DNA from: Chloroflexota bacterium
GTDB lineage: Bacteria > Chloroflexota > Dehalococcoidia > E44-bin15
Direction of reading: 5' to 3'
Length of the DNA: 64,000 nt
NCBI GenBank assembly: GCA_030626475.1
Contig: DAOUOW010000002.1
Location: 454-64,453 of the forward strand
In this document: positions 4,301-11,356 of the stretch, in pieces
Position numbering within the stretch: position 1 is the stretch's first letter
Layout: each line of letters starts with the position of its first letter
The notes under the pieces: generated by a model
What the model was told of the DNA's origin: nothing
What the model saw: only the letters and a program-made list of their open reading frames with translations
Database searches by the model: none
Position numbers and translations under genes: made by a program

Positions 4301-4377
4301 TGGGGATGGTCATTCCAAGTCGCACCCCCGGAACCATGTAACAAAAGTCCATTTGGTGCAGCCACGAGTAAACAAAA

Positions 4378-4407
4378 GGGGGAAGCGGATTCGAATCCGC
4401 TTCCCCC
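4378..4407. terminator. Bidirectional intrinsic terminator between convergent genes
   Basis: Perfect 12-bp stem GGGGGAAGCGGA / TCCGCTTCCCCC with loop TTCGAA. On the minus strand it is followed by TTTTGTTTAC, and on the plus strand by TTAATATTT. Confidence 0.7.
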
Positions 4408-4428
4408 TTAATATTTGGCAGATAGAGC

Positions 4429-5034
4429 CTATATCTGCAAGGTTATCTGGTGGGGATAAGGATCAACGCCCGTCGCCTCCACCGTGCCAGGGTTTTGCCC
4501 CCAGCCATAGGCGCAAAACACACAGTTCTTGAAGGCTTCCTTATCCCCAGCCTCATAGCGCTCGACCAGATAGCGCCAGCCAGGGCAAAGCCGGCCGTTC
4601 ACCTTTGCTCTCTCCTCTTTTGCCCGGCACTCCAGGCGCAGATATGCCACCTTCCCTTTGCCCCCCTCTGTCCAGCCCTTGCCCTTGGGAGCCTCCATCA
4701 CCTGCTCCTTTGGCCTGTTGGGGCACAGATGATACTCATACTGGCTGAGGCGGACATGCCCGCAATAAGGGCAGGGGAACACCTCACGCTCCTCGACCTC
4801 GCCCTGCCTGCACTCGGCACAGGCGTTCTCGGTCACCAACTCCAGATTCCCATCACCGCACCAGGGGCATAGTTCAGGGATCGGATCCCCCAACTGGGAG
4901 AGGGTCGCCCCTTCCCCGCACTCGGGGCAGCCGTAGGCCGGCTCAGTGGGAGGGTCGAAGGTTCGGCAGACGGGGCAAATCCTGCGCCGCTCGGTGAGCA
5001 GGCTGAGCTGCTTGGCTCGCTCTTGCCACCACAC
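4429..5034 (-). CDS. Multi-zinc-ribbon protein of the integrative element, C-terminus QITLQI
   Basis: Repeated CxxC pairs: CPVC...CPEC, CPWC...CAEC, CPYC...H-x-C and CVFC. GTG start after GGAGGTGA. The extreme C-terminus HQITLQI resembles the hexapeptide beta-clamp-binding pattern QLxLxL. Confidence 0.6.
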   Translation of the reverse strand: MWWQERAKQLSLLTERRRICPVCRTFDPPTEPAYGCPECGEGATLSQLGDPIPELCPWCGDGNLELVTENACAECRQGEVEEREVFPCPYCGHVRLSQYEYHLCPNRPKEQVMEAPKGKGWTEGGKGKVAYLRLECRAKEERAKVNGRLCPGWRYLVERYEAGDKEAFKNCVFCAYGWGQNPGTVEATGVDPYPHQITLQI

Positions 5035-5088
5035 GGTCTCACCTCCCTTCTATTCAGTTATTGGCATAGGCCGGGGATTAACTCCCCG

Positions 5089-5268
5089 CTACTCGATCTT
5101 CTCTGCGTCGAGGATCACCTCATTGAGCTGGTCAATGATGGGGATAAGCCTCTCTTCCAGCTCAGGATGCACCTTTACCACCGCCTCCAGGTGGTCTCTG
5201 GCGTAGATGATGGAGAAGAGGGGGTCGTATCCCTCGGCGATCTCCCGACAGGTCTGCCCGTGACCCAC
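5089..5268 (-). CDS. Small hypothetical protein (59 aa), absent from the supplied ORF track
   Basis: Hand translation gives V(M)GHGQTCREIAEGYDPLFSIIYARDHLEAVVKVHPELEERLIPIIDQLNEVILDAEKIE. GTG start 6 nt after a strong SD, GGAAAGGAGGTGAAC. It lies just upstream of, and co-oriented with, the Zn-ribbon gene. Confidence 0.45.
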   Translation of the reverse strand: MGHGQTCREIAEGYDPLFSIIYARDHLEAVVKVHPELEERLIPIIDQLNEVILDAEKIE

Positions 5269-5296
5269 CGTTCACCTCCTTTCCAGGCCACAAGAA

Positions 5297-5334
5297 AGGG
5301 GTTGAACCCCCACGCTTCGGGGGGCGCAACCCCT
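5297..5334 (-). other. GC-rich extended stem-loop between the terminator and the small-ORF RBS
   Basis: The outer stem AGGGGTTG / CAACCCCT encloses CCCCC...GGGGG with a CTTCG-type loop. On the minus strand it is followed by TTCTTGT and, 28 nt later, by the GTG of the 59-aa ORF. Confidence 0.4.
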
Positions 5335-5344
5335 CTAAAAAAGC

Positions 5345-5372
5345 AAAAAAGCGGGGCTACCCCCGCCTTTTT
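5345..5372. terminator. Intrinsic terminator downstream of the DnaN-like gene
   Basis: Stem GCGGGG-CTAC-CCCCGC, flanked by AAAAAA on one side and CTTTTT on the other, so there is a U-tract on either strand. It lies 38 nt after the clamp gene stop. Confidence 0.65.
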
Positions 5373-5409
5373 GCGTGGCTTCTGTTTTGGGCTAAACGCT
5401 CGGTTATGC

Positions 5410-6588
5410 TTAGACTGCTACAGGTTCTTTTGCCTTGCGACTGCGCCTGGGCTTGTCCTCGGTAGGAGCTTTGACCTCAGCGACTGGCTCGCTAGGCGCT
5501 TCCGCCTCAGTGGGCGCTTCAGGCTCATCCCCCCACTGAACGAACATCGGCATCAGCACCAGCCGATAACCGTCAACGGTAAACAGTATCGGGTCTTTTG
5601 TGCCATTGACCTTTAGCTCTGCCATTCCCCCCAGGGCTTTGAGCACCTGGGAAAGGTATCTGGCACTAATAGCGGTCTTTGCCTCGCCCTGGGTCTGAGC
5701 CTCGATGGTAGCCTCCCCCGCTCCATCGCTGGAGGATAGCCTTATTCGGCCGTCCTCGATGTAGAGCCTGATAGTAGCATCCTTCGCTACACCAAGAGAG
5801 GCAACCGCCATCCCCGCTCTCATAAGCTCCCTTGTGTCGAACCTCGCCTCGGTCTGGGCTTCGGCGGGGATTAACTTCTCATAGTCGGGATAGCTCCCCC
5901 CTTCGCTTGCCCACCGATACCGTATTGCCTCGGTTTCAATCACAAGGTTATTGTGGTCGGCGATACCGTTTGGCTCAAAGGCCAGCCGAACCCTTTTCGC
6001 CCTTTTGAGCGCCGATATAAGCCCCTTAATCTCATCGGCGGGGATAAGGGCGTCGCCCTCCCCATCCTCAAAGTCAAGGGCTACATCGGCAAGACGATAG
6101 CCATCGGCGCTTGCCAGGGTCAGCTTCCCCTCTTTTTGGGCAAAGCGGACACACTGCAACACTGGTCTCTCATCCTTTTTGCCCGCAGCAAAGGGGATAA
6201 CCCTTGCCAGGGCTTCGGCAAGCTCTATCCCGCCAAGATTGGGGATAACCGAGGTATTAGGGGATACCCGAACCTCACAGGTATCGGCTATCGCCATCTT
6301 CTTTGTAATCCACGCTCCATCTTCAAGGTAGCTCGTGTTAGCCCCGCAGACTACTCTCAAGCCTTTACCTGTGGCCTGCGCTTCGCTAGCACCACCGTTT
6401 GAGGGGGTTATCTTGACCATTCCCCCCTGAAGTAGCCTGATATAGCCCAGGAAGCCCTTGCGCCCAAGCTCTATATCGTTAATCCGAATCTTGGGCGCTT
6501 GCGCCCTGGAAAGAGCGCTCACAAGCCTTGCCCTGTGGCAGACAAAGCCTTCACCTGAGCGCTTGCCCTCAATATTAAGTTGTTCCAA
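5410..6588 (-). CDS. DNA polymerase III beta-subunit (DnaN)-like sliding clamp, element-encoded, with an extra charged C-terminal tail
   Basis: DnaN hallmarks: RPVLQCVRFAQKEGKLTLASADGYRLA (cf. L-x-L-V-A-T-D-G-H-R-L-A), YPDYEKLIP (cf. FPDY..VIP), ISARYLSQVLKAL and YRLVLMPMFV (cf. ..VVMPMR). A ~45-aa tail follows: WGDEPEAPTEAEAP...KPRRSRKAKEPVAV. TTG start. Confidence 0.75.
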   Translation of the reverse strand: MEQLNIEGKRSGEGFVCHRARLVSALSRAQAPKIRINDIELGRKGFLGYIRLLQGGMVKITPSNGGASEAQATGKGLRVVCGANTSYLEDGAWITKKMAIADTCEVRVSPNTSVIPNLGGIELAEALARVIPFAAGKKDERPVLQCVRFAQKEGKLTLASADGYRLADVALDFEDGEGDALIPADEIKGLISALKRAKRVRLAFEPNGIADHNNLVIETEAIRYRWASEGGSYPDYEKLIPAEAQTEARFDTRELMRAGMAVASLGVAKDATIRLYIEDGRIRLSSSDGAGEATIEAQTQGEAKTAISARYLSQVLKALGGMAELKVNGTKDPILFTVDGYRLVLMPMFVQWGDEPEAPTEAEAPSEPVAEVKAPTEDKPRRSRKAKEPVAV

Positions 6589-6730
6589 GCCCTACCCCCC
6601 TTTGGGCTTTGGGGAAAGGCGGGCAATTCCTCTCCCGTGCCCTAGTAGTGAACGCTAGCGGCGCTGCGCTTCGCTAGCCGCCGCTTGCGCTCCCACTTAT
6701 ATAATGAATTTGGGGGGTCAAAATGCGACA

Positions 6731-7186
6731 TCACAAGAGGCAAAGCTGGTGCTTTTGACGGTATCGTTCGAGATACTTTTGGTCGGTTTTGGTGAGCGCT
6801 ATCCCGCTAACCTTCTTGTGGGCGATCTCCACAAGCCTCTTTGGGCAACCGAGAAGCCAAACCCTTGCGTCAAGCCAAGCCTCCAGGTCTATGGCGTTAT
6901 CGTCGGCGATGGTGTCTATCAGCTCTATGGTGTCGCCTTCGCCATCGCCTATCTCGGTATTGAGGCTTATCAGTCTCCCGTTGCGCTTCTCGGTATGCCA
7001 ATACTCCATCACAACATAGCTGGCTACCCTTACCATAGCTCCCTCGGTAAAGGGCTTGTGCCCGTTCCTCTGGGCAACCTCTGCCATCCTCATTATGATG
7101 TTATGCCTCAAATCTTCCCTATCATCAAACCTGGCCTTGTATTGAAATCTATCGGCTACTTCGCTATACTTTTCCCAGTCTAGCAT
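6731..7186 (-). CDS. Minimal sigma-70-family/ECF-like (or RinA/ArpU-like) transcription factor ending in QLCLL
   Basis: Region-2-like DREDLRHNIIMRMAE...MVRVASYVVMEYWHTEKR and region-4-like LLGCPKRLVEIAHKKVSGIALTKTDQKYLERYRQK. I place the start at the ATG at 7186 (MLDWEKY...), which sits 8 nt after AAGGAG, rather than at the TTG at 7210 used in the ORF track. The C-terminus is ...KHQLCLL. Confidence 0.6.
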   Translation of the reverse strand: MLDWEKYSEVADRFQYKARFDDREDLRHNIIMRMAEVAQRNGHKPFTEGAMVRVASYVVMEYWHTEKRNGRLISLNTEIGDGEGDTIELIDTIADDNAIDLEAWLDARVWLLGCPKRLVEIAHKKVSGIALTKTDQKYLERYRQKHQLCLL

Positions 7187-7220
7187 CCGACTTGCTCCTT
7201 TCCAGGGCAAGGCTAGACTT

Positions 7221-7254
7221 CCCCAGCTAGGTAGCGCTAGCTGGGGCTTTTTAT
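7221..7254. promoter_or_regulatory. 10-bp perfect inverted repeat in the leader of the sigma-like gene; reads as a terminator on the plus strand
   Basis: CCCCAGCTAG-gtagcg-CTAGCTGGGG followed by CTTTTTAT on the plus strand. It lies 35-60 nt upstream of the minus-strand ATG at 7186. Confidence 0.4.
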
Positions 7255-7410
7255 GCCTTGCCCTGATACAAGAGGCAAGCGGTCAAGGCTTTGGCTCTAT
7301 TCAATTGTTAAGGTGCTTTTGATTTGCCAGCTTCAGGATTGCACAAAATGTGCTTTGGTTCGATAAGTGGAACTAATATGTTCAACTCCCCTCCCTCTAG
7401 GAGCCCTTAT

Positions 7411-7569: not shown

Positions 7570-8196
7570 TTAGGTTCGTTCATTAGCGAGCTTTGGTCTT
7601 CGCCCGGCGGGGCATGCTGCCGGGGCGGGCAAGCTTCCTCTCTGCCTTTTTCGGGCTCCGCTGCGAGCGAGGGTAGTTGTACAATGCCTGAAGCGGATCC
7701 CGCCACCTTCGATGGGTGCCTGTTTGCCTTTAGCAGTGAGGCAATAGAAACGCCTGGGCTGAGGTACCTCGACCATAGTGGTGCCCTGAGATGTCTTCTC
7801 CACCCTGGCCCCAGGCGATCCACCTATGAGCGAACCTTCCTCTTCACCGGTGGCCTCCACCCAGCCCAGCATCTTGAGGTGGTGGAAGTACCTGTAGAAG
7901 CTATGGCTTCGGATCTTGGTCAGCCGGTGAGGAATGCGCCTCAGGGCCTCCTCAACGGAGAGCTCGATCCCCTTCTCCATGGCGAGGGCCACCATGTCCT
8001 CGGCGTGTTCTCGCAGAAGGGCATTTTTGTACGAGGACCTGATGTCCTCGGTAGGAGCGCCACGCTTGGGATCGCTGACGCAGGCACCGTAGGTGTCATC
8101 GCCTGATAGGTAGGCACGGATGAACTCACCCAGGCCGAATGGTCTGAGGAAGCCGCCACGGGTTGGCCTGAGGCGCGTTTCATCTCCGGTCACCAC
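7570..8196 (-). CDS. Hypothetical protein with a winged-helix-like segment
   Basis: 208 aa, GTG start after GGAGGTGA. The segment SFYRYFHHLKMLGWVEATGEEE...RFYCLTAKGK resembles the recognition helix plus wing of PadR/MarR-type wHTH proteins. No other motif recognised. Confidence 0.5.
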   Translation of the reverse strand: MVTGDETRLRPTRGGFLRPFGLGEFIRAYLSGDDTYGACVSDPKRGAPTEDIRSSYKNALLREHAEDMVALAMEKGIELSVEEALRRIPHRLTKIRSHSFYRYFHHLKMLGWVEATGEEEGSLIGGSPGARVEKTSQGTTMVEVPQPRRFYCLTAKGKQAPIEGGGIRFRHCTTTLARSGARKRQRGSLPAPAACPAGRRPKLANERT

Positions 8197-8283: not shown

Positions 8284-8946
8284 CTATGTCCCCGCCTTCT
8301 TGGTCATGGGTGGCTGGATAGACTTCGCCACCTCCAGCACCATCCTATTCCAGCTAGCAGCAGGGCACGCATTGCAGAGCACCCAAGGGAAAGTGTTGAT
8401 GAACCAGGAGACCGTCTTCATCTCGTTCTGCCACTTCTTCATTTCTTCCTCTAGGGCGGCCTTTCGCCGTTCCATGATGGATACTTCAAACTTTGCCCTC
8501 CTCAGCCGTCCTTCCTCCTCCTTGACTTCCTGCCGAATCTTATCGAGGGCGATCTCGTAGTGGGTGAACTCCATCTTCCTGAGTTGCTTCTCATTCTGAT
8601 ACCAGGCCTCCAAATCTCTGCGGCGGCGAGCCCTCTCCTTTTGGATAGGAACTTCCAGTTGTTTGCGGCGCTCTTCAATGAGGTGTTCCAGGCTAAGCAG
8701 CTGCTGCTTCAGGTTGTCTCGCCTGCCAGCAAGCTCCTTTACCCTGGCGTTGACCCGGGCCTCCTCTTGGTCAAGGGCTGCCGTGAGGAATTCGCTCTGG
8801 GACTGCCCTGTAGCCCGAATGTGATCCTTGAAGCGCTGGTACACGTCGCGTTTCACCCGAAAGCTTAAGGTGGGATTAGACTCCTCGTACCTGGACCTAC
8901 TGGGCTTTTTCTTCTTTGCCGGTTTCTTACTAGCCACGTTTACCAC
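8284..8946 (-). CDS. Ribbon-helix-helix (CopG/Arc-like) N-terminal domain protein with a long coiled coil
   Basis: N-terminal PTLSFRVKRDVYQRFKDHIRATGQSQSEFLTAALDQ fits a beta-strand plus two helices RHH pattern. It is followed by ~120 aa of heptad-like, charged sequence. The start is ambiguous (GTG at 8946 or GTG at 8937), and both lie inside an iteron copy. Confidence 0.6.
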   Translation of the reverse strand: MVNVASKKPAKKKKPSRSRYEESNPTLSFRVKRDVYQRFKDHIRATGQSQSEFLTAALDQEEARVNARVKELAGRRDNLKQQLLSLEHLIEERRKQLEVPIQKERARRRRDLEAWYQNEKQLRKMEFTHYEIALDKIRQEVKEEEGRLRRAKFEVSIMERRKAALEEEMKKWQNEMKTVSWFINTFPWVLCNACPAASWNRMVLEVAKSIQPPMTKKAGT

Positions 8947-9473: not shown

Positions 9474-9502
9474 ATTATACTTTAGTTACTTCCCTATGTC
9501 AA
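9474..9502 (-). promoter_or_regulatory. Leftward consensus sigma-70 promoter toward the xis-like gene and the rest of the element
   Basis: The minus strand reads TTGACA-TAGGGAAGTAACTAAAG-TATAAT, which is a perfect -35, a 17-nt spacer and a perfect -10. Confidence 0.65.
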
Positions 9503-9556: not shown

Positions 9557-9985
9557 GTGCGACGGGGATACAGCCAAGATGTAAGAGCTGAGGCTATTAC
9601 GAGACGCTATCACGGAATGGAATGGAAACAAATTCAAGTTGGAATCCAAGAGAAATTTCATGTCAAGCCCAGCATAAGGCAGATGCAGAAATGGTTTGAG
9701 GATTATCAGGGGACTGGGGAGGACCCCACCGGGGTCAAGTTCATGGCAACGGCGATAAAGGAGGCTGCTGAGAGAGCTAGGCCCCTAGCCTACAGCGAGG
9801 TAATGGAGGGCCTTCCTGCCCTCAGGAGCTTCATCGAACTGGGGGCTGACCTGGAGGATGCTGGGTGGATGTTTGTTCTTCTTGCGCTGGAGCGGCAGGT
9901 TGGGCGAGACAATTTTGACCGCATAGTCGCCAAGTATGTGCAGCTACGTGACAGACTGAACGAAGAAAAAGGAGGACAGAGATGA
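9557..9985 (+). CDS. Hypothetical protein (possible N-terminal HTH), translationally coupled to the integrase
   Basis: GTG start 5 nt after AGGAGG. The N-terminus YSQDVRAEAITRRYHGMEWKQIQ is HTH-like. The stop overlaps the integrase start (ATGA at 9982). Confidence 0.55.
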   Translation: MRRGYSQDVRAEAITRRYHGMEWKQIQVGIQEKFHVKPSIRQMQKWFEDYQGTGEDPTGVKFMATAIKEAAERARPLAYSEVMEGLPALRSFIELGADLEDAGWMFVLLALERQVGRDNFDRIVAKYVQLRDRLNEEKGGQR

Positions 9986-11160
9986 AGGGTCACATCCGAC
10001 AGCGTTCTAAGGGTTCGTGGTCCATCGTGATCGATGTGGGGCGAGACGCCGAGACGGGAAAACGGTGTCAACACTGGCATACCGTGAAGGGCACAAAGCG
10101 GGACGCAGAGAAGAGGTTAACGGAGTTGCTGCACTCGCTGAACAGGGGGAGCTACGTGAAGCCCACTCGCCTCACGGTCGCAGAATACCTGGAGCAGTGG
10201 CTAGATGGCTATGTGGCCACTAACACCGCACCTAGAACCCGTGAGCGTTATGAGGAGATCGTGCGGCTTCATCTCATTCCTGCCTTGGGCTCTCTTTTGT
10301 TGCTGGCTTTACATCCGCAACACATCCAGAAATACTATGCTACTGCCTTGGAATCGGGTCGGCGAGATGGCAAGGGTGGGCTATCGGCACGTACAGTCCA
10401 CAAGCATCACAGGGTGCTCTATGAGGCCCTGAAGCACGGCGTAAGGCAAGGCATTATTGTTCGCAACGTGGCCGAGGCCGTTGACCCGCCTCGGCCTCAG
10501 AGCAAGGAGATATCAATGGTGGGGCCAGGCCATGTGCGCTTGCTTCTCGATGCTGCGAAGCCGACACCCTACTATGTCGCTTTCTTCACTGCCGTCTATA
10601 CTGGTCTGCGCCGGGGTGAATTGCTTGGCCTACGGTGGTGCGATATTGACCTGGATCTGGCAACGCTCTCGGTGATTCAGGCGTTACAGCAGCTCCGTGG
10701 CGGGCAGTACATTTTCAGGGAACCCAAGAGCAGGCGGGGCCGTCGCCAGATAGCGTTGTCACCATCATTGGCGATCCTATTTCGGGAGCACCGGACAAAG
10801 CAGGAGAATGACCGAAGGCTACTTTGTAGGCCTCTAGTTCCAACTGACTTAGTATTCTCACACCCTGATGGCAGACCGCTTCGACCTACAAGCGTAACAA
10901 GGGCGTTTAGGGCAATAGCCCATTCGCTTGGACTAGAGGGCGTTCGGCTCCATGACCTGCGGCACGCTCACGCTACGCTTATGCTACAGCAGGGTATTCA
11001 CCCAAAGATCGTCTCAGAGCGGCTAGGTCATAGCTCCGTGGCAATAACATTGGATATCTATTCCCACGTCCTGCCCGGGTTACAAGAGGCTGCGGCACGT
11101 CGTTTTGAGGAGGTACTGCAGGACATTTCGGTTGACGCGCCAGCGATCGGGATTCGTTAG
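9982..11160 (+). CDS. Tyrosine recombinase / phage-type integrase
   Basis: N-terminal SAM-like core-binding domain (AEYLEQWL...RTRERYEEIVRLHLIPALG). The catalytic motifs are GLRRGELLGLRW, HDLRHAHATLML and LGHSSVAITLDIYSHV. Confidence 0.92.
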   Translation: MKGHIRQRSKGSWSIVIDVGRDAETGKRCQHWHTVKGTKRDAEKRLTELLHSLNRGSYVKPTRLTVAEYLEQWLDGYVATNTAPRTRERYEEIVRLHLIPALGSLLLLALHPQHIQKYYATALESGRRDGKGGLSARTVHKHHRVLYEALKHGVRQGIIVRNVAEAVDPPRPQSKEISMVGPGHVRLLLDAAKPTPYYVAFFTAVYTGLRRGELLGLRWCDIDLDLATLSVIQALQQLRGGQYIFREPKSRRGRRQIALSPSLAILFREHRTKQENDRRLLCRPLVPTDLVFSHPDGRPLRPTSVTRAFRAIAHSLGLEGVRLHDLRHAHATLMLQQGIHPKIVSERLGHSSVAITLDIYSHVLPGLQEAAARRFEEVLQDISVDAPAIGIR

Positions 11161-11177
11161 CAAAATGTTTGCAATTT

Positions 11178-11206
11178 TGCCTTTGTGGCAGGTTTTCGTG
11201 TATAAT
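11178..11206 (+). promoter_or_regulatory. Candidate promoter of tRNA-Ser
   Basis: TTGCCT (11178-11183), a 17-nt spacer, then TATAAT (11201-11206). The tRNA begins 10 nt after the -10 element. Confidence 0.5.
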
Positions 11207-11215
11207 CTGAAGCCA

Positions 11216-11301
11216 GGAGAGGTGTCCGAGTGGTTTAAGGAACCGCTCTCGAAAAGCGGTGTCCCGAAATGGGACCGTGGGTTCGAATCCCACCCTCTCC
11301 G
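11216..11301 (+). tRNA. tRNA-Ser (anticodon CGA), class II with long variable arm
   Basis: Hand-folded. Acceptor GGAGAGG/CCTCTCC, D-arm TCC-GAGTGGTTTAA-GGA, anticodon arm CCGCT-CTCGAAA-AGCGG, variable arm GTCCC-GAAAT-GGGAC, T-arm GTGGG-TTCGAAT-CCCAC, discriminator G. CCA is not encoded. Confidence 0.93.
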
Positions 11302-11356
11302 CTTTTTTCCGTTCTTCGGGCCATCTTTGAAGAAGGCTCGATCTTTTGAAAAGGGA

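Follow-up and report, generated by a model that had tools for sequence, protein, structure and literature searches.

The DNA analysed here (the window, 64,000 nucleotides) holds an integrative element of about 7 kb, associated with a tRNA gene and lying at roughly 4.3-11.2 kb, from an uncultured Dehalococcoidia bacterium. Among the leftward genes of this element are those of a small sigma-like protein (named sigL hereafter) and of a beta-type sliding clamp, and our main finding is that the C-terminal tail of sigL, which carries a clamp-binding type of motif, and an adjacent clamp gene co-occur evolutionarily. As judged from sequence, this association could reflect an element-encoded clamp acting as a hub, with sigL as its core client, a sigma similar to gp55 of phage T4, and with the transcription of the element coupled to the clamp, a reading to which we give a little less than an even chance.

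The open reading frames (ORFs) of this region listed by the initial annotation, together with the 142-nucleotide spacer, the stem-loops and the C-termini of the sigma-like and Zn-ribbon proteins, were all confirmed on the minus strand, as follows.

6731..7186, minus strand: sigL, 151 residues; ATG start with a good Shine-Dalgarno sequence (SD); ends in ...RYRQKHQLCLL, with the QLCLL codons at 6734-6748
6589..6730, minus strand: spacer between sigL and the clamp gene, 142 nucleotides, conserved in alignments of 11-32 loci
5410..6588, minus strand: beta-type sliding clamp, 392 residues, with residues 1-350 assigned to three beta-clamp domains
5413-5526, minus strand: C-terminal extension of the clamp (residues 355-392), predicted disordered, acidic and proline-rich, with a basic patch and KEPVAV (5413-5430) at its end
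5343-5374, minus strand: stem-loop 1 after the clamp gene, strong and similar to an intrinsic terminator (14-bp stem and T-run)
5297-5311, minus strand: stem-loop 2, short and terminator-like
5089..5268, minus strand: ORF of 59 residues (orf59) with a strong SD
4429..5034, minus strand: multi-CxxC Zn-ribbon protein, 201 residues; ends in EPYPHQITLQI, with a hexapeptide motif of clamp-binding type, QITLQI, at 4432-4449

Co-occurrence of the sigL tail and the clamp gene

Of the 94 related loci that were analysed, 14 come from genomes and 80 from metagenomes. The clamp gene directly follows sigL in 57 of the 62 loci with enough downstream sequence, and of the five exceptions, at least four have been rearranged, with a serine-recombinase gene inserted immediately after sigL. 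For the most distant tail-bearing members of the sigL family, a clamp was found in 4/4 testable loci, and for the tail-less distant relatives in only 1/7 loci (1/5 proteins). As a whole, the presence of the sigL tail and that of an adjacent clamp gene are associated with p = 1.8e-5 (Fisher test, calculated on non-independent loci). The reverse comparison, starting from three clamp homologues (54-57% identity), found sigL immediately upstream in 3/3. The adjacency of the two genes, put forward by the initial annotation from the window, is thus conserved when seen from either side.

Concerning the tail itself, the motif Qxx[LMIV][FLMIVW] is present in the last 10 residues of 54 out of 92 diverse sigL representatives, compared with a mean of 1.8 and a maximum of 7 in 500 shuffles, and it forms the exact C-terminal end in 40 of the 92. 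Among the ORFs of the fetched loci, 79/89 have Qxx[LIVMF] within the last 12 residues (shuffle mean 12.2, maximum 24). As a family consensus, the tail reads R-[FYW]-R-K-K-E-Q-K-x-L-F-COOH, and variants include the canonical QLSLF as well as the longer QKTLANFPTF and QKPLASVTF. From these sequences, the tail is clearly under selection, while its surroundings vary.

A few loci and relatives depart from the common arrangement. In locus L108 (5310-7248), a bare sigL (tail QKRLF) and clamp pair lies between host metabolic genes, as a remnant or a domesticated two-gene module. The tail-less relatives P0211, P0220, P0257, P0261 and P0270 carry C-terminal zinc-ribbon extensions in place of the clamp motif, and the relative P0242 has an Xre-type helix-turn-helix (HTH), yet adjoins a divergent clamp.

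The clamp, its putative clients and the sigma-like domain

The clamp scores above the cut-off for Pfam DNA_pol3_beta_2 and _3, and its homologues possess all three Pfam domains; it also matches phrog_947 ('DNA polymerase processivity factor') at 5e-33. Against TIGR00663, the DnaN equivalog model, only residues 125-348 align and the score is 80.8 bits for a cut-off of 137.65, which indicates a paralogous clamp rather than the housekeeping DnaN. The AlphaFold2 (AF2) model built with 62 homologues (pLDDT 83, pTM 0.77) shows three beta-alpha-beta domains and disordered residues 355-392. In a Foldseek search, this model matched bacterial beta clamps over their full length at E~1e-22, with 505 matches below 1e-3 and 323-415 columns superposed. 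Pfam, PHROG, AF2 and Foldseek therefore agree with the initial annotation of 5410..6588 as DnaN-like.

The partner cleft was mapped with hhalign and phmmer against solved clamps and E. coli beta. Residues R152, L155, G174, R176, L177, P242, Y323 and M362-P363-M364 of E. coli beta correspond to R141, L144, G163, R165, L166, P234, Y311 and M346-P347-M348 of the element clamp, and the mapped positions are mostly invariant or nearly so among the 62 homologues. The cleft stretches read ADGYRLA, YPDYEKLIP and LMPMF in the element clamp, for TDGHRLA, FPDYRRVLP and VMPMRL in E. coli. By sequence and model, the protein is a three-domain beta clamp with an apparently intact domain II-III partner cleft.

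With the housekeeping DnaN it has in common the three-domain beta fold and the hydrophobic cleft. It differs by its sub-cut-off score, by a diverged N-terminal domain with the near-invariant motif NIEGKRSGEGF, and by an extension of about 40 residues ending in KEPVAV(A), which is kept in most of 120 homologues. In canonical beta clamps, the chain stops at the MPM strand, which is part of the lining of the partner cleft. The additional tail of the element clamp could therefore fold back as a pseudo-ligand; it could also be a docking site for another partner.

As for the Zn-ribbon protein, its [HY]Qxx[LFMI] tail is kept in 32/34 full-length homologues, down to 47% identity, and the family tail reads EPY-[PL]-[HY]-Q-x-x-[LFM]-x-[LVM]-COOH. 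The two terminal motifs noticed by the initial annotation are hence present and conserved in both families (54/92 for sigL, 32/34 for the Zn-ribbon protein). The Zn-ribbon gene itself was found in 5/33 loci, or in 7 loci by family clustering, all with the motif. Its proposed place as a partner in the module stands with respect to the conserved tail and falls with respect to core membership, the gene being replaced by other families elsewhere. Because of this minority presence, and because other tail-bearing families occur in its place, the Zn-ribbon protein is regarded as one of several clients that can replace one another, sigL and the clamp being the pair that does not vary. Its neighbour orf59 is present in 0/33 sister loci, which hold other small ORFs at this position, and gave no match in Pfam, PHROGs, NCBIfam or PADLOC.

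For the client search, all ORFs around sigL were clustered into 91 families, dozens of which are antisense ORF families that provide internal controls. Terminal clamp-type motifs were found only in coding-strand families downstream of the clamp. They occur in 95% of a 162-residue family present in 19 loci (...KQLALGL, ...KQLKLGV, ...QPSLFDF), in 100% of a 169-residue family (...RQLKIAF), in 83% of a 98-residue family (...QQNLGL, ...RQPTLSL) and in 100% of the Zn-ribbon family, and at the N-terminus in 86% of a 160-residue family (M..TQLGLFE). The corresponding values are ~0-6% for the antisense and other control families, and 0/47 for the host genes of the window. In all, six unrelated element families (sigL and at least five others) end or begin in a conserved Q-x-x-L-Phi or Q-x-x-L-x-Phi.

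Known clamp clients carry such motifs, namely QLGLF in Pol II, QLVLGL in Pol IV, the N-terminal QLSLPL in Hda and QMSLL in MutS. The element clients follow the same penta- and hexapeptide grammar at their termini, whereas they are unannotated proteins, with no match in Pfam or PHROGs for the client families, and not replication or repair enzymes. Transposases that bind the beta clamp have also been described (PMC4549789).

The protein sigL is identical to a deposited 151-residue 'hypothetical protein' (P0001) from a subsurface metagenome. One search returned 985 homologues, all unannotated, and an exhaustive search gave 324 clusters at 50% identity, originating from Dehalococcoidia/Chloroflexota metagenome-assembled genomes and from sediment and subsurface metagenomes; no relatives were found in IMG/VR viral contigs, sequenced phages or plasmids. 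The AF2 model (pLDDT 71) shows three helices, a floppy segment with a hairpin and three more helices, which gives the predicted layout of an N-domain similar to sigma region 2 (residues ~8-70), followed by a floppy linker, a three-helix C-domain and a basic tail.

Several searches bear on the N-domain. Pfam Sigma70_r2 is matched by 6/89 diverse sigL members, and in three located members the match falls at the start of the sigL-homologous domain, over its first ~60 residues (P0262 residues 31-86, P0220 residues 91-149, P0258 residues 45-102); the scores in distant members are 23.4 (P0262), 19 and 15.6 bits, all under the cut-off of 24. When a diverse sigL profile was compared with the PDB, the top match was region 2 of E. 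coli sigmaE (E=0.09), colinear through regions 2.1-2.4, and hhalign placed sigL residues 8-70 on sigmaE residues 31-93 (E=8e-4, probability 24%), for region 2 only. The best Foldseek match has a non-significant E of 0.25, roughly two-thirds of the top 50 being sigma factors, mostly of the extracytoplasmic function (ECF) type, and region-2-only structures superpose on sigL at 2.7-3.9 A over 61-75 residues. The four methods put the N-domain on sigma region 2 in the same register, and the top structural and profile matches are sigmaE, SigH, SigW, SigC and CnrH. Taken together, these alignments and models are weak evidence for a sigma-region-2-like N-domain. A PDB sequence search with a profile of close homologues returned only designed helical repeats, and Foldseek against viral structures gave nothing significant. 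Also, a Sigma70_r4_2 match (P0216 residues 305-336) was rejected as a sigL region 4, since it sits in an unrelated C-terminal extension.

Proposed clamp-coupled transcription and competing explanations

In the proposed mechanism, the host clamp loader would load the element clamp onto DNA, where it would form a docking hub ('tool-belt') for the element proteins with terminal motifs. As a gp55-like minimal sigma, sigL would join the host core RNA polymerase, and the DNA-tracking clamp would tether or activate it through its C-terminal tail, so that the element genes would be preferentially transcribed on clamp-bearing DNA, be it replicating, nicked or freshly excised. The Zn-ribbon protein would be an interchangeable accessory client and possibly a co-activator, a role for which the other clients are candidates too. 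Expression may be staged, with a sigma-70 promoter for the early operon, and with sigL and the clamp under their own promoter-like blocks and structured leaders.

The closest parallel is found in phage T4, where gp55 consists of a sigma-R2 homology domain, a helix-loop-helix, a 21-residue linker and a clamp-binding motif, and where the late promoter has only a -10-like AT-rich element (PMC7892883). Like the T4 gp45/gp55/gp33 system, the element has its own sliding clamp, a seemingly region-2-only sigma-type protein with a helical module, a linker and a C-terminal clamp motif, a second small protein with a C-terminal clamp motif, and a conserved TATATAAGT box ahead of the clamp gene. However, gp45 is a PCNA-like trimer and T4 has its own loader (gp44/62) and polymerase, whereas the element clamp is of the beta type and comes without loader or polymerase. 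Moreover, T4 is a virulent phage, whereas the ~7-kb integrative element has no gp33 homologue and at least five variable client families. The likeness of sigL to gp55 is one of architecture.

In phage Mu, MuC and Mor use the host beta clamp via a terminal Qx[DE][LM]F or QPDLF, either N- or C-terminal; at position 2, the functional motifs QHDLF and QPDLF do not follow the consensus, and late transcription is coupled to replication (PMC12867686, PNAS 2026). The element would likewise place a transcription factor, the presumptive sigma sigL, on a beta-type clamp through a terminal motif that is off-consensus at position 2. Mu differs by relying on the host clamp, sigma-70 and an activator, whereas the element has its own clamp and the tail is on the sigma-like protein. 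Regarding homology to Mor/MuC, sigL had no Pfam match at E<=0.1, these families included.

Like the ECF (group 4) sigmas, sigL is small, and it has an N-domain of three sigma-2-like helices joined by a flexible linker to a helical C-domain, but the window sigL has no significant Sigma70_r2 or sigma-4 match and no anti-sigma gene was recognised. In the literature searched, no clamp-binding tail was found on an ECF sigma, and the full-text search turned up neither such an element nor a sigma-like protein reported to carry a beta-clamp motif.

Several points weigh against a clamp-tethered sigma. The loci are phylogenetically related, so the counts overstate their independence, and one tail-less relative (L102) does have a neighbouring clamp, a very divergent one. 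The commonest sigL tail, QKRLF, has a lysine at motif position 2, which is unusual for beta-clamp ligands; as the functional motifs of Mu deviate at this same position, QKRLF-type tails are nevertheless plausible ligands. The sigma assignment is sub-threshold by every method: the window sigL has no match in Pfam (E<=0.1), PHROGs, NCBIfam or PADLOC, 0/18 extension-free close members match Sigma70_r2, and neither Pfam nor hhalign gave evidence of a sigma region 4 in the family. The 'sigma-like' label given to 6731..7186 by the initial annotation therefore holds, weakly and below threshold, for region 2, and fails for region 4, which has no match in the homologous domain. Boxes of the TATATAAGT type occur once in the window, no more than by chance, so no regulon is visible. 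Finally, many element genes are unannotated, which makes a cryptic replication function possible. Nothing in these results contradicts outright any of the four points on which the initial annotation had made its proposal depend, i.e. a clamp ring with its partner cleft, conserved terminal motifs, a sigma-like assignment and the co-occurrence of the genes elsewhere.

Part of the same evidence could be read, as the initial annotation also allowed, with the host housekeeping beta clamp as the target of the terminal motifs, the element proteins hijacking it or competing at forks, and the element clamp being a supplement, a decoy or a buffer against toxic titration. Many client tails are canonical (KQLALGL, QPSLFDF, QLGLF) and should fit any beta clamp, while the cleft of the element clamp is canonical too and gives no sign of an orthogonal pair. 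In Mu, the host clamp is bound by MuC, which becomes toxic when overexpressed because it titrates the clamp (PMC12867686), and the rearranged copies without clamp retain the sigL tail. We nonetheless hold this explanation to be unlikely: the sigL tail and the adjacent clamp are tightly linked in both directions, most tail-less relatives are without both, and the clamp gene, kept in 57/62 loci, would be needless if the host clamp sufficed. Much the same low probability is given to a tool-belt for replication or maintenance, in which sigL would bind DNA or act in regulation without being a sigma, or would serve as an adaptor to an origin or a loader, and host Pol III and repair proteins would be recruited to the excised element. 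Clamps are primarily replication factors, several clients are wholly unannotated, the evidence for a sigma stays below threshold and concerns a single domain, and the conserved hairpins found close to the clamp gene might form in DNA as origin-like structures. Against this, the element family has no detectable polymerase, primase, helicase, initiator or clamp loader, which bears out the remark of the initial annotation that the element lacks a polymerase and loader of its own; four independent methods align the sigL N-domain with sigma region 2 in one register; and G-U pairs, together with covariation that sequesters the SD, suggest that the hairpins work in RNA.

The tails might also have nothing to do with clamps and be C-terminal degrons (ssrA-like ...ALA or MuA-like ClpX signals) or docking peptides for another partner. 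One sigL subgroup does end in ...KKYQIALA or ...YQLALT, which is ssrA-like, and the sigL motif is preceded by a basic run that resembles ClpX C-motif 2. Yet the glutamine and the leucine three residues further on are near-invariant in six unrelated families, the textbook motifs QLSLF, QLGLF and QLxLGL occur, one of them N-terminally, and the association with the clamp gene is strict, all of which makes this explanation very improbable. All three are less favoured than a clamp-tethered sigma.

At the level of the whole element, the relatives may represent a new family of small, non-viral integrative elements of Dehalococcoidia, in which a private, host-loaded beta clamp would hold a gp55-like sigma and changing effectors by their terminal motifs, and in which two new structured RNA leaders would gate expression, a proposal that we make with more doubt than confidence. 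Clamp-activated transcription has long been seen as a T4 curiosity, and the authors of the Mu study predicted a wider use of the clamp-coupled strategy (PMC12867686). If the clamp-tethered sigma is real, the element would add a third, independent case, of a novel architecture made of an element-borne beta clamp, a sigma-like protein and unknown clients; it would also be the first instance of a sigma factor linked to a clamp of the bacterial beta type, and of a mobile element with a tool-belt of this kind. The source phylum is environmentally important and hard to culture, and the module offers short testable peptides and a compact three-gene core, as well as a route to function for at least six 'hypothetical' protein families. 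The clamp-peptide pair could be a natural orthogonal tethering tool, and the two conserved structured leaders are candidate new cis-regulatory RNAs.

Leaders, borders and genomic setting

The regulatory features of the leftward genes are the following.

9474..9502, minus strand: sigma-70 promoter with the perfect consensus TTGACA-17-TATAAT, heading the leftward operon
7187..7300, minus strand: sigL leader, conserved and structured, with TTGACC at 7281-7286, segment 2 GGGCAAGGC at 7255-7263, segment 3 GCCTTGCCC at 7205-7213 and the SD at 7194-7203
7221-7246, minus strand: sigL leader hairpin, CCCCAGCTAG...CTAGCTGGGG
6695-6703 and 6716-6721, minus strand: clamp promoter-like block, made of TTGACC (6716-6721), a 12-nucleotide spacer and TATATAAGT (6695-6703)
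6650-6692, minus strand: clamp leader hairpin 1, with its inner helix at 6658-6684 and the apex GCTAGCGAAGCGCAG
6611-6636, minus strand: clamp leader hairpin 2
6595-6603, minus strand: clamp SD

Both sigL and the clamp gene are thus preceded by TTGACC-N12-TAT and a conserved structured leader. The inner helix of the clamp leader is 100% paired in 25 distinct sequences, with compensatory changes at 4/7 pairs and a covariation of 0.51, compared with 0.18 for shuffles (0/500) and at most 0.17 for slid controls. The sigL leader is conserved in 76 distinct loci, with compensatory changes at 10/18 predicted pairs. Alternative pairings that would sequester its SD co-vary across lineages (CTCGCC/GGAGCGAG, CTTCCCC/GGGGGAAG and others), making this leader, which has no Rfam match, a candidate for a new translational switch. 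Downstream of the clamp gene, the strong terminator implies that orf59 and the Zn-ribbon gene form a separate unit.

The apex GCTAGCGAAGCGCAG of the clamp leader is repeated as an identical 15-mer inside the clamp coding sequence (6376-6390, minus strand), in the codons of a conserved disordered loop, G-A-S-E-A-Q. In most of the 25 loci, this loop is the best match of the leader apex in the coding sequence, with 15/15 identity in three lineages, and the sigL leader hairpin also has GCTAGCG. The apex/GCTAGCG motif may serve as an operator recognised by a regulator of the element or by a protein that binds RNA. Also, sigL and orf59 have a near-identical translation-initiation context, TG[GC]CCTGGAAAGGAG (7195-7209 and 5276-5290 of the window, respectively, minus strand).

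The remaining features of the element and its ends are as follows.

11216..11302, plus strand: tRNA-Ser(CGA), directly 3' of the integrase gene, marking the right border region
9982..11160, plus strand: tyrosine integrase, 392 residues, recombination module of the element
9557.., plus strand: 142-residue ORF overlapping the integrase start, also of the recombination module (the pair spans 9557..11160)
8284..8946, minus strand: ribbon-helix-helix (RHH) and coiled-coil protein, element regulator or partition-like; present in 6/51 loci and not conserved in the family
7570..8196, minus strand: winged HTH (wHTH, PadR-like) protein with weak PadR matches, conserved upstream partner of sigL
4376..4409, minus strand: strong terminator hairpin (15 bp), located where the leftward gene set ends and probably marking the left end region of the element

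The extent of ~7 kb rests on the tyrosine integrase and tRNA-Ser found at one end and on the host genes found on both flanks, i.e. radical-SAM, dprA, topA, xerC-like, aroQ, efp and xseA genes to the right, and a MarR gene and a GGDEF/HD-GYP gene to the left. No significant direct repeat of the attachment (att) type was found when the tRNA/integrase end of the window element was compared with its left end, nor in 12 sister loci, and no tRNA-fragment repeat was found at the end far from tRNA-Ser. The integrase end of the sister loci is flanked by tRNA genes of varied identity, and the tRNA was the sole match of the Rfam scan. An integrase is usually positioned 3' of its tRNA; in the window (9982-11302) and in L006, L018 and L079, it lies 5' of tRNA-Ser, on the same strand. 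At the other end, the hairpin at 4376-4409 is a perfect 15-bp palindrome, GGGGGAAGCGGATTCGAATCCGCTTCCCCC, which includes the tRNA T-loop-like TTCGAATCC, and stands as a bidirectional terminator between orf109 (plus strand) and the Zn-ribbon gene (minus strand).

Across the family, the core of the element runs from the wHTH gene to sigL and then to the beta-type sliding clamp. Tyrosine recombinases (392 or ~235 residues), a serine recombinase and a coiled-coil protein are also encoded recurrently, alongside unknown proteins.

The possibility that the ~7-kb element is one of the IME1 virus-like elements of Dehalococcoides was rejected, as it has none of the IME1 genes. These elements (21-28 kb) carry a primase-helicase, a pI-like ATPase and a metallophosphoesterase-like large coding sequence, the paper naming no clamp or sigma, and they form a larger, distinct family. 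A role as a defence system is unsupported apart from a single locus: the PADLOC models gave only coiled-coil noise, on the RHH protein. In that locus (L109/L110, 9017-13278), the sigL-clamp element adjoins a defence island with a short prokaryotic Argonaute (pAgo, Piwi) and SIR2 pair and a BrxL gene, a SymE-like toxin and a Gp49/HTH pair being located upstream.

The wHTH gene precedes sigL in 44/58 loci, and its family comprises 86 ORFs in 59 loci. Many sister copies (e.g. L004 9117-9674 and L010 9119-9628) end in W-x-[ND]-P-x-x-A-L-Y-G-(R), the tail of the window copy (7570-8196) being basic instead. In L004 (8456-9169), L010 (8434-9135) and ~40 more loci, the wHTH gene is directly preceded by that of the ~235-residue tyrosine recombinase, which is unusually small and has a Zn ribbon within its catalytic domain.

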